This document shows positions 6,637-36,335 of a stretch of DNA of 64,000 bases, one piece after another. Under the pieces are notes generated by a model that was not told the DNA's origin, ran no database searches, and saw only the letters and a program-made list of their open reading frames with translations. This DNA comes from Eledone cirrhosa (taxonomy: Eukaryota). Within the stretch, counting starts at the first letter, position 1. Each line of letters starts with the position of its first letter. Both the position numbers and the translations under genes were made by a program. The stretch covers positions 146,940,001 through 147,004,000 of the forward strand of contig OZ024741.1 of the NCBI GenBank assembly GCA_964016885.1, in the 5' to 3' direction.

Positions 6637-6707
6637 GGCCTGTTGGTGCAATGGTAACACATTGGTCCAGCAAACCAAAGATAAGGGTTTGTGTCCCATG
6701 TACGTCA
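6637..6707 (+). tRNA. tRNA-like pseudogene inside a TA-flanked repeat (loop CCAGCAA, anticodon position AGC)
   Basis: 71 nt with cloverleaf spacing. D arm GTG/CAC with TGGTGCAATGG A box; anticodon stem TTGGT/ACCAA; T arm GGG-TTTGTGT-CCC; imperfect acceptor stem; T-run at 6718-6723. C instead of U33. Confidence 0.6.
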
Positions 6708-6817: not shown

Positions 6818-7640
6818 GGCCATGTTCGATATGTAGGAAAGGAACTGGCATAAATTCCATAAAATGTACGTAATGCAGATCTTGGGTACACAAGAGATGT
6901 AGTGGGATAGCAGGCAAACTAACAGGTAGATGTACAGGGACAGTTGGCAGTAGTAATTGCAGTGATAGACACATTTTTCCAATGCAGGTGTGTTCTATAG
7001 AAGTGGTTGATAGCTTCTGATACCTAGGTGATCAGATTAGCATGGGAGGGGGTGTTCTGAGGCCATAGTGTCTAGAATAAGGGTGGGTTGGAAGAAGTTT
7101 AGGGAGCTGCTTCCTTTGTTGACAAACAAGGGTTTCTCCCTGCGTATGAAAGGATGGTTATATGATGCCTGTATGAGATGCACGATGATGCATGGTAGTG
7201 AGACATGGGCAGCAACTGCAGAGGATATGCTACGGCTGGAGAGAAATGAAGCAAGCATGCTCCGTTGGATGTGCAATGTCAATGTGCGTGAATGACCAAG
7301 CATAGACGAGTTGAGAAAGAAACTGGGTATAAGAGGGATAAGTTGTGGTATGCAGGAGAGAAGTCTGAGATGGTATGGACATGTGATGTTCATGGAGGAT
7401 GACCGCTGGGTAAAGAAGTGCCAAGAAATACCAGTGGAGGGAAGACGCAGTAGAAGTAGACCATGAAAAACATGGGCGCAGGTGGTGAGAGTAGACCTCA
7501 GATCACTGAAACTCACCGAGATGACGAAGGACCGTGACAAATGGAGAGATGTTGTGCTGAATAGGACCCATCCAACCCTTGCAAGCAGGGAAAAGCAGAT
7601 GTAAAATGATGATGACGATGATGATGATGATGATGATGAT
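6818..7640 (+). mobile_element. 5'-truncated RTE LINE, family B
   Basis: WPCSICRKGTGINSIKC, GWKKFRELLPLL, HGSETW. Short 3' UTR and (GAT)n tail. Begins in (TA)n. Confidence 0.9.
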
Positions 7641-8023
7641 ATATATAATATAGGAATGGCTTTCCTGATTTCTCCCGAATGAAACAGTTCCAGTCCTGTA
7701 GAAGCCATTTCTATATTAAATATTTATTCTTTGCTATGTATTGAGCACCTTACTTACTGTGGTTACTCCTGAGTGAACCCGGGAAAGATATTTTACATTT
7801 ATTAATATTATTGATATTAATTATACACCAGAAAATATTGTTGAGGGCTTCTATCTATTATAAAATAACTCATTGCTTATATATATATATAAATTTGTCA
7901 GTAATATACTTTACATCTCAATAAATAAGATTGCTTTGAATCTAATTTAGAGAAGCTTATAAATATAAATATAGAAATATCTGTGGTTAGTCTGCACCTT
8001 ATTTAAGATATATATATATATAT

Positions 8024-8311
8024 TACAGTTTTAGGAAGCCATAGCTATGCAAACACTGGGGGAGGGGGGGAGCATCTGCTGGACATCACCCTCTGGTGAT
8101 GTCCAGCAGAAGCAAGGGGGACAACCGTCTATGCATTTCAGGCTTAACTGGCCTTCGTCAGGACGGTCCCTCCCACCGCTTGCGACTGCTGGACTTGAAG
8201 ACAGCTGAGAATATATACTTTTCTCGTCTGTGTAAATGAGGTGATTAATCTCATTTGCATATGAAGCTGCATAAGTTGGTGTTTGCATAGCTATGGCTTC
8301 CTAAATCTGTA
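8024..8311. mobile_element. Small element with 33-bp terminal inverted repeats (TA-CAG...CTG-TA), an internal perfect hairpin and a hammerhead ribozyme
   Basis: TACAGTTTTAGGAAGCCATAGCTATGCAAACAC (8024-8056) vs GTGTTTGCATAGCTATGGCTTCCTAAATCTGTA (8279-8311), one mismatch. Hairpin TCTGCTGGACATCACC-CTCT-GGTGATGTCCAGCAGA at 8075-8110. Confidence 0.85.
8124..8167 (-). ncRNA. Minimal type I hammerhead ribozyme
   Basis: Minus strand reads ACCGUC-CUGACGA-AGGC(CAGUUAA)GCCU-GAAA-UGCA-UA-GACGGU: all core nucleotides, 6-bp stem I, 4-bp stem II, palindromic AUGCAU stem III. Confidence 0.9.
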
Positions 8312-8449
8312 TTTCTTTGGAGATACGAAATATTTATACATATTGTATAAAGCTATGCTTGAAGAGAAATTCTATCTTTTTTTTTATATATATATAAGGG
8401 ATAACAAAATATTGTTATAAGTAATCCAGTTAGAGGTTGTGAATACTTC

Positions 8450-8680
8450 TTATTATGGATAGTTTTAGGCATTGTTTGACTAAACATGAGGTTTACGTAG
8501 ATGACGAGTTTATGATTTCACTTGTATTCTTATGTAAGTTTATCTTGGAGTAATAAAATTGAAAAAGTTTCCGAAGATCTGATCGAGCTAACATCATATT
8601 TAAAATTGAGTGGCACTGCTTCTAGTGTTCAGCAATTTTTAGACATCTTTATCAGTGAAACAATTGTTAGACTGTAAATA
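8450..8680 (+). pseudogene. Possible heavily deleted Penelope-like ORF remnant (RT motifs and GIY-YIG)
   Basis: IMDS.LG-like motif, YVDDEF starting at 8494, then DRANIIFKIE...C...FISETIVRL resembling GIY-YIG (NVVYK...YIGET). Needs frameshifts and contains stops. Confidence 0.35.
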
Positions 8681-8827
8681 AATCCCCTTTTTTGTACTGT
8701 TGACCATGTTATTTTCCACTTTTTCAATTATATATATATATATATATATACATAGTGCAAATTTGGACGGGAACAAAACAGAGAGGCAGACAAATATATA
8801 TGTACATACATATATATATGTATATAT

Positions 8828-12400
<3,573 letters not shown>

Positions 12401-35652: not shown

Positions 35653-35697
<45 letters not shown>

Positions 35698-35848
35698 ATA
35701 CTTTGGGAGGGTCATGTTGCCAATAAGAAACACACGCTCCAGTTGCTTTCACTTCAATTTAATTTATTATATATTTATAAATTTACAAATTTATAAATTT
35801 CTGGTTGGTTGGTTGGTTCCACAACCAGATGGTTGTTTATATATATAT

Positions 35849-35893
35849 AGTCATAGTTCTTTCGTCACACACTCTGTGACCTCTTCAGTGACT
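35849..35893 (-). ncRNA. Minimal type I hammerhead ribozyme (left arm)
   Basis: Exact reverse complement of 36026-36070. Confidence 0.8.
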
Positions 35894-36025
35894 GGGGATT
35901 TCTTTCTTCGTTTCTGTGCCTTTCCTTTCTTCTATCCTACGCCATTTTGTTTTGTTTGTGACACACAAACAAAATGGCGTAGGATAGAAGAAAGGAAAGG
36001 CACAGAAACGAAGAAAGAAATCCCC

Positions 36026-36070
36026 AGTCACTGAAGAGGTCACAGAGTGTGTGACGAAAGAACTATGACT
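36026..36070 (+). ncRNA. Minimal type I hammerhead ribozyme (right arm)
   Basis: AGUCA-CUGAAGA-GGUCACA(GAGUG)UGUGAC-GAAA-GAAC-UA-UGACU: intact core, 5-bp stem I, 6-bp stem II with one extra G, minimal stem III. Confidence 0.8.
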
Positions 36071-36283
36071 ATATATATATAAACAACTATCTGGTTGTGG
36101 AACCAACCAACCAACCAGAAATTTATAAATTTGTAAATTTATAAATATATAATAAATTAAATTGAAGTGAAAGCAACTGGTGCGTGTGTTTCTTATTGGC
36201 AACATGACCCTCCCAAAGTATAACAATATCGGTTTCAACACACGATTTCAGATAAAGAATCTTGCTAAACAAATTCAGAAACG

Positions 36284-36335
<52 letters not shown>

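Follow-up and report, generated by a model that had tools for sequence, protein, structure and literature searches.

Newt satellite 2, the subject of work by Coats, Zhang and Epstein in 1994, reportedly has a unit of ~330 bp containing an octamer and a PSE, a picture that draws partly on the axolotl repeats of PMC7229834. The schistosome Sm-alpha repeats possess a Pol III promoter composed of tRNA-type A and B boxes. A third group, the metazoan non-LTR retrozymes, is described in excerpts of Cervera and de la Pena 2020 (PMC7229834) and of a 2026 preprint as having a non-coding unit of ~300 bp with a canonical type I hammerhead. Penelope-like elements, which coexist with these retrozymes, leave a distinctive pattern on insertion that, according to the excerpted text of PMC8557442, includes partial tandems, an inverted 5' copy, a tail of 30-40 bp that is often one-ended and a bias towards microsatellites. 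This tail has been tied to two internal reverse-transcription start sites in a stem-loop, as set out in part of PMC11167929.

Here, a locus in the cephalopod Eledone cirrhosa is compared with these systems. It lies in a window of 64,000 nt, this term denoting the whole stretch of DNA analysed (assembly GCA_964016885.1, contig OZ024741.1, positions 146,940,001 to 147,004,000, forward strand). On balance, the locus is probably a partly inverted copy of a type I hammerhead retrozyme, likely inserted in the manner of Penelope-like elements and likely transcribed from an snRNA-like promoter of its own.

Layout of the locus

By sequence comparison with its relatives, the window locus belongs to a non-coding repeat family with a unit of ~325 bp; it is a shortened copy, inverted in part, and extends over ~360 bp as against the 288 bp first proposed. 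The main copy (8024..8279, minus strand) corresponds to reference positions 14-256 of 329, its 3' end falling ~32 nt short of the family's usual short end, and it abuts an inverted 5' arm (8278..~8385, plus strand) corresponding to reference positions 223-329. The preliminary description had taken 8024 and 8311 as the ends of an element bounded by 33-nt terminal inverted repeats (TIRs). These arms (8024-8056 and 8279-8311) are real and 97% complementary; however, family sequence continues unbroken from 8312 to ~8385, 74 bp beyond the supposed right end, and the right-hand TA (8310-8311) is no target duplication but leads on into it. The apparent TIR, produced by the first 33 nt of the inverted arm, exists because the 3'-shortened main copy and this arm overlap.

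The outer end of the inverted arm is a Penelope-type tail of ~40 bp (8344..8385, plus strand), a concept taken from excerpts of PMC8557442 and PMC11167929, which is present on this end alone and terminates in a T-run (8377-8385). An 8-bp stem-loop (8333..8351, plus strand), drawn from the circular fold of another copy (L005), holds in its loop the commoner 3' end of the family, and this loop may mark a start of reverse transcription. Runs of (TA)n lie beside the 3' ends of both the main copy (8008..8023) and the inverted arm (8386..8397). No coding frame of at least 120 aa is present across 8024-8385, and none of the contigs from four runs, whose kind is unknown, spans the locus. Because it has a single hammerhead, the window copy cannot free unit-length RNA alone; it is a dead-end copy, of little interest by itself.

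The immediate flanks (7660-7840 and 8390-8620) are themselves high-copy repeats, the left of which recurs at many loci, often as inverted pairs, and contains a decayed hammerhead-like core. Further out, the locus is flanked by two oppositely oriented LINE 3' fragments ending in (ATG)n (6926-7647 and 8821-9545), which we take to be RTE-like and which make a long inverted repeat of 81-90% identity. A weak Rfam tRNA match at 6637-6707 (plus strand, 34 bits) is probably the head of a tRNA-derived SINE. Elsewhere in the window, at 35660-36290, a head-to-head inverted pair of another hammerhead repeat sits between (TA)n runs, with cores at 35888-35854 on the minus strand and 36031-36065 on the plus strand; this motif type also occurs beside Penelope-like frames at two other loci (L101, L102) and lacks the octamer described below.

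The repeat family and its copies

A search of the species' own genome (3.0 Gb) for the family of the window copy, termed family A, returned 2,395 first-look candidates, of which 40 were scored, with most copies 89-92% identical. The unit was deduced from copies joined head to tail; it carries a type I hammerhead and, at ~325 bp, lies within the 150-450 bp size range of retrozymes. Family A is accordingly classed, from its sequence features, as a non-LTR retrozyme of thousands of copies, found as singles, partial tandems and one array of 11 units with a period of mostly ~320 bp. Arrays are the minority, most copies being single or inverted. An exact-pattern genome search identified 46 direct hammerhead pairs, together with 38 octamer pairs that comprise 17 genuine cases and 21 from one minisatellite. 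The latter, a 26-bp repetition of the family A octamer segment in at least 30 units, is located at G000:C459:4189-5063 (L175-L177).

For analysis of insertion ends, 109 loci were mapped and 10 duplicates removed, leaving 99 distinct loci that had been picked in four biased ways: by similarity to the window, by paired hammerheads, by paired promoters and by the promoter pattern on one chromosome. Among the 29 best other loci, 28 align to the query only from position 32 or beyond, the exception, L004, doing so from position 7.

The hammerhead motif and a private hairpin

The hammerhead motif occupies 8124..8167 on the minus strand, with predicted cleavage between 8130 and 8129. Stem I is formed by 8167-8162 paired with 8129-8124 (6 bp), and is followed by the core sequence CUGACGA (8161-8155), a 4-bp stem II with a 7-nt loop, GAAA and the palindromic AUGCAU of stem III. 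The earlier claim of a minus-strand hammerhead with every core base and a palindromic stem III is thus borne out, whilst the label 'minimal' is not, since a helix I of 6 bp and a helix II of 4 bp match the canonical metazoan type I form, for which helix sizes are given in excerpts of PMC4209133. In the predicted fold of the window copy, stems I and II pair with probabilities of 0.89-1.0, and the 71-nt hammerhead region has a z-score of -2.1. A circular fold is predicted with a z-score of -4.3. Neither at the gathering threshold nor at E<=10 does Rfam report a hammerhead match at the window copy, and the same is true of related copies.

The preliminary description had proposed conservation among other copies as a check. 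The stems differ in sequence yet still pair across families A, B, E and G (the other families are described below). Counting against the ribozyme within family A, variation is greater in the stems (0.11-0.13) than in the core (0.05), and all 11 core bases are kept in only 49 of 78 copies. Cleavage, if it takes place, would probably be dimeric, through the palindrome of stem III (PMC6765202, in excerpt). In the excerpted 2026 preprint (Li, Clavereau and Pollet, bioRxiv 10.64898/2026.07.22.740005), one of nine retrozyme dimers cleaved, and part of PMC11167929 states that Penelope insertion in vitro did not need ribozyme cleavage.

A second perfect hairpin, of 16 bp, had also been noted at 8075..8110. 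It is indeed present; it is not, however, part of the element's design, having one exact match in the 3.0-Gb genome and standing in place of the family's GCGTTAG segment, and other family copies differ in sequence at this site. Because a C-to-T change in a few copies gives a 4-bp quasi-palindrome there, this private hairpin was likely created by local template switching at that short motif. It is predicted to abolish the family's 9-bp outer helix, which extends stem I and whose 5' arm (8186..8194, minus strand) is unpaired in the fold of the window copy (pair probability 0, versus ~1.0 in L005), whilst stems I and II remain intact. Read coverage of the hairpin arm, with a depth of 12-16 in one run and none in two, is weak evidence.

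A promoter module shared with host genes

The octamer and TATA box, noted earlier without explanation, proved the most informative feature of the locus. An extended octamer, ATGCAAATGAG (8250..8260, minus strand), recurs without change ahead of RNase MRP and of one host U6 gene; in the predicted RNA fold it also supplies the 5' strand of a hairpin. Downstream on the same strand are TCACC (8240..8244), a PSE-like motif at the place where host U1/U2 promoters carry TCAGT and matching it in 3 of 5 letters, and a TATA-like box, GTATATA (8212..8218), within which the TATATA of the preliminary description (8217-8212) is confirmed. By analogy with U6 and MRP, transcription is predicted to start near 8187.

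Host genes of the snRNA class were fetched by Rfam family; 12 dispersed U6 matches and two others without a promoter, all retrocopy-like, and six insertion-displaced array copies were left out of the promoter count. In three distinct U6 promoters, as in that of RNase MRP, GTATA(T/A)A lies at -31 and ATGC(A/T)AAT(G/T)AG at -76 to -78. The octamer is found in 4 of 5 Pol III-class host promoters and in none of 7 distinct U1/U2 promoters, the proximal position being without it at RNase P, a canonical Pol III gene. TCAGT, in turn, occupies -56 to -58 in 7 of 7 U1/U2 promoters and lies at -66 from the model start in RNase P. The motif at the equivalent U1/U2 position, with TATA set at -30, is TCACC in family A and TCAGC in families B, E and F, and the octamer-TATA spacer of family A measures 31 bp as against 34-36 bp in host genes.

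Two observations on the host genes may be recorded separately. The RNase P RNA gene (L233, G000:C24:12936134) combines TCAGT and the lack of a proximal octamer with, nevertheless, a long T-run at its end. In the U6 array on C19, an insertion of ~200 bp separates the module from U6 in 6 of 11 fetched copies (L038, L039, L041-L044).

The module arises in none of 3,000 shuffled monomers and has 1,117 matches in the genome, compared with 3 for a reversed control. Thirty matches were fetched among 100 listed of the 1,117 (two pairs of them being the same insertion), and 21 of these 30 have an exact hammerhead core 35-110 nt past the TATA box, against a background of 2.5%. Two seemingly single-copy matches, L106 (G000:C1:136503603) and L107 (105561285), have spacers of 36 and 38 and no Rfam match downstream of their modules; they are candidates for unannotated small RNA genes.

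The fetched matches group into family A and families B, C and D, which have different spacers and bodies, and a further 12 places in the match list yielded families E and F, the latter without a clear hammerhead core. Because B-F were found by the promoter pattern, only family G, which has an octamer, a TATA-like box and a hammerhead of its own and came to light beside a Penelope copy, is an independent find. Altogether, no fewer than five divergent hammerhead families (A, B, D, E and G) contain the module, the cores of family C being decayed. Outside (TA)n, the likeness of family A to B, E and F (72%, 73% and 84%) is essentially confined to the promoter. At one locus (L095), a family A copy has family B sequence fused to its 5' end with nothing between, a join that suggests template switching between families with a common enzyme.

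In families A, B, D, F and G the octamer lies inside a predicted RNA hairpin (z -2.1 to -4.3) whose partner strand differs from family to family. The prediction is weak in C, E and a second D copy (z -0.4 to -1.0), and no such hairpin is predicted for host promoters (z +0.3 to +1.0). This contrast would fit a promoter that needs to travel inside RNA. Among the other-type hammerheads seen beside Penelope-like frames, none has an octamer upstream.

Host promoters possess, in addition, a distal element, TTA(C/T)(C/T)TCCCTT, at about -257 to -288 in 10 of 12 snRNA-class cases (L032-L034, L059, L061, L115-L120, L233), which should be useful in building expression cassettes for Eledone cirrhosa. The repeat unit has a weak match to it (8112..8125, minus strand), which in a tandem would lie ~-261 from the predicted start of the next unit. 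The score, which 4% of shuffles reach, is 10, as against 17-24 in host genes; the match overlaps the stem I extension and is absent from families B and G. That an upstream tandem unit supplies a distal element at ~-261 is speculative.

Transcription and the choice of polymerase

On the analogy with host genes, the motif pair of family A matches snRNA promoters and likely drives transcription of the element itself. Between the two polymerases that serve such promoters, we lean slightly towards Pol II of the snRNA type. In insects, small PSE differences decide the polymerase (PMC1761439, in excerpt), so sequence alone cannot settle this choice.

The closest competitor, which we hold to be less probable but which deserves serious weight, is that the module works as a genuine Pol III promoter of the U6 type, in which case most transcripts would stop at the T6 of the unit end and rare read-through would give unit-length RNA. 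The proximal octamer is limited to U6 and MRP among the host genes examined, family C shows the U6 octamer-TATA spacing of 35 bp, one of the two peaks of 3' ends (see below) falls at the T-run, and RNase P, with both TCAGT and a long downstream T-run, indicates that TCAGT need not mean Pol II. Against this, six T's are kept in 43 of 69 internal junctions, so that the RNA template would have passed a strong terminator; terminal T-runs before (AT)n, judged by eye, usually have 4 or 2 residues and seldom an odd number, as expected of priming in register more than of ragged termination. Furthermore, families A, B, E and F place TCA(G/C)C as far from TATA as U1/U2 genes do their TCAGT, families A, B, D, E and F have a spacer 4-5 bp shorter than that of U6, and newt satellite 2 offers a Pol II precedent. 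On inspection by eye, no obvious 3' box of the U1/U2 type is seen past the RNA end.

It appears unlikely that the element is an ordinary retrozyme that owes its transcription to read-through out of flanking DNA and keeps the octamer and TATA box as relics or for the sake of RNA structure. Such a view accords with the excerpted statement in a 2020 review (PMC7761336) that retrozymes do not seem to harbour promoters, with the location of both motifs in or on predicted hairpins, and with a spacing unlike that of host genes and a base preceding TATA that is C in 50 of 166 aligned segments. It accounts poorly for the promoter being the main region common to divergent families, for the retention of the octamer whilst its hairpin partners change between them, and for an exact 11-mer shared by host promoter and element within a module that shuffling never yields. 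Self-transcription from an snRNA-type promoter is preferred for these reasons.

Insertion pattern and Penelope-like enzymes

Mobilisation by Penelope-like enzymes, one of two alternatives raised in the preliminary description, is supported by inversions, one-sided tails and (TA)n targets. Inverted arms with the tail outwards are found in 58 of the 99 loci, and in 14 of 28 in the least biased set. Of the 38 inversions that could be classified, after leaving out 20 of the 58 with one or both ends elsewhere, 34 have a tail on exactly one end, one on both and three on neither (p ~3e-7). Outward 3' ends cluster at two sites ~40 nt apart, with 69 at 280-299 and 55 at 320-329, and the commoner of these sits in the loop of an 8-bp hairpin in the predicted fold. 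A (TA)3 occurs within 16 nt of 101 of 130 classed ends, compared with 9% in flanks. Family A was likely reverse-transcribed and inserted by Penelope-like enzymes: a one-sided 40-bp tail together with 5' inversions constitutes a Penelope footprint on a non-coding element, which is more direct than co-occurrence.

The ~325-bp unit itself contains no RT plus GIY-YIG frame. Elsewhere in the genome, an uninterrupted frame of 1,148 aa combines RVT_1 and GIY-YIG domains and belongs to a family with 7,070 candidates, which its cysteine motif places as Neptune/Nematis-like and which is a candidate driver. The Penelope family searched has no sequence in common with the family A unit. As a source of the promoter, the Penelope family with intact frames was rejected, having no common sequence, no octamer and no coding-strand hammerhead that passes the filter. 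Nine short Penelope-like fragments, whose frames were picked by eye, were not recognised by Pfam.

A quite improbable reading makes the unit the pseudo-LTR, solo or in tandem, of an autonomous Penelope-like element. In its favour, a 5'-truncated Penelope-like frame is found shortly downstream of one family copy (L002/L099); the two parts are separated, however, by ~30 nt belonging to another repeat, and this join was also discarded as a pointer to any particular driver. Moreover, units are joined head to tail with each other, no recurrent coding sequence was seen beside the unit when the frames of 98 loci were inspected by eye, and octamer matches near the one Penelope family searched, confined to 2 of 30 loci, all come from adjacent A or B copies. 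The other original alternative, a Tc1/mariner-type MITE with 33-bp TIRs and a TA duplication that carries a ribozyme, can be dismissed: the TA-CAG...CTG-TA ends with 97% complementary arms and a similarly short inverted junction in one other copy (L004) suit it, whereas family sequence runs 74 bp past its right end, MITEs are not characterised by tandem arrays or one-sided tails, and genome-wide comparison finds arms from tens of bases to a full unit with junctions that are not fixed.

Proposed cycle

The preferred reading, a self-transcribing retrozyme inserted by Penelope-like enzymes, can be expressed as a cycle in which promoter activity, start site, cleavage, circularisation and the Penelope enzyme are all inferred. 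The octamer/PSE-like/TATA module of one tandem unit would initiate RNA around unit position 106, with the cut site ~58 nt downstream. This RNA would traverse the next unit together with its promoter, and two hammerheads would cut it, probably as a dimer, to release unit-length RNA. On circularisation, a promoter that is upstream in DNA would be carried within the RNA, folded as a hairpin. A Penelope-like RT/GIY-YIG protein would then nick (TA)n and begin copying at two sites ~40 nt apart, generating the partial tandems, 5' inversions and one-ended tail, an end pattern that is directly observed. A variant in which linear templates never reach upstream of the predicted start was ruled out by the 17 promoter-promoter tandems and the 11-unit array.

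A bolder and more tentative proposal is that several retrozyme families captured a host U6/MRP-type Pol III promoter and carry it as RNA hairpin cargo through cutting and circularisation, as self-promoting circular-RNA retroelements riding Penelope enzymes. If this were true, most genomic copies of the host type 3 promoter signature would be retrozymes, the upstream promoter that is lost when ordinary SINEs move would become RNA cargo, and the upstream tandem unit might provide a distal enhancer at ~-261. Were it active, the 325-bp unit would offer a small natural cassette of promoter and ribozyme with which circular RNA could be made in this animal group.

Comparison with known systems

In common with metazoan non-LTR retrozymes, family A has a small non-coding unit and a canonical type I hammerhead, ranges from monomers to multimers and coexists with Penelope-like elements, as far as the excerpts of those papers describe. 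It differs in its host-matched snRNA-type promoter module, retrozymes appearing promoterless in the excerpted text of PMC7761336. The evidence for mobilisation by Penelope also differs, as the published case in these excerpts rests on co-occurrence and phylogeny and that for family A on the tail and inversion pattern of insertion ends. No published report of a retrozyme with such a host-type promoter, or of one in cephalopod hammerheads, was found in a search that lay largely outside subscription papers, and supplements could contain such sequences.

Newt satellite 2 resembles family A as a hammerhead tandem repeat with an internal snRNA-type promoter (PMC2220036, in excerpt). The newt repeat is amphibian and reportedly transcribed by Pol II, whereas the family A module consists of TATA and a proximal octamer that match host U6/MRP and recurs in several divergent families. 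The schistosome Sm-alpha repeats (excerpts of PMC6765202 and PMC2220036) parallel the proposal for family A in being hammerhead repeats with a promoter of their own, one unit transcribing the next; their promoter, however, is an internal Pol III promoter and that of family A an upstream-type snRNA module.

With the Penelope-like EN+ clades (Craig et al. 2021, PMC8557442; Frangieh et al. 2024, PMC11167929; both in excerpt), family A shares partial tandems, inverted 5' copies and a one-ended 30-40-bp tail, as well as AT-rich or (TA)n targets, a hammerhead with a palindromic stem III and two starts, one of them in a stem-loop. It is distinguished from them by the absence of an RT or GIY-YIG frame and by its octamer, which neither the Penelope family examined nor the Penelope-associated hammerheads seen possess. 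What transcribes animal retrozymes thereby becomes testable through a host-matched module in at least five divergent hammerhead families, and what moves them through Penelope footprints. Non-LTR retrozymes and internal promoters are each already known; it is the host-matched snRNA-type promoter together with the Penelope footprints that merits follow-up.
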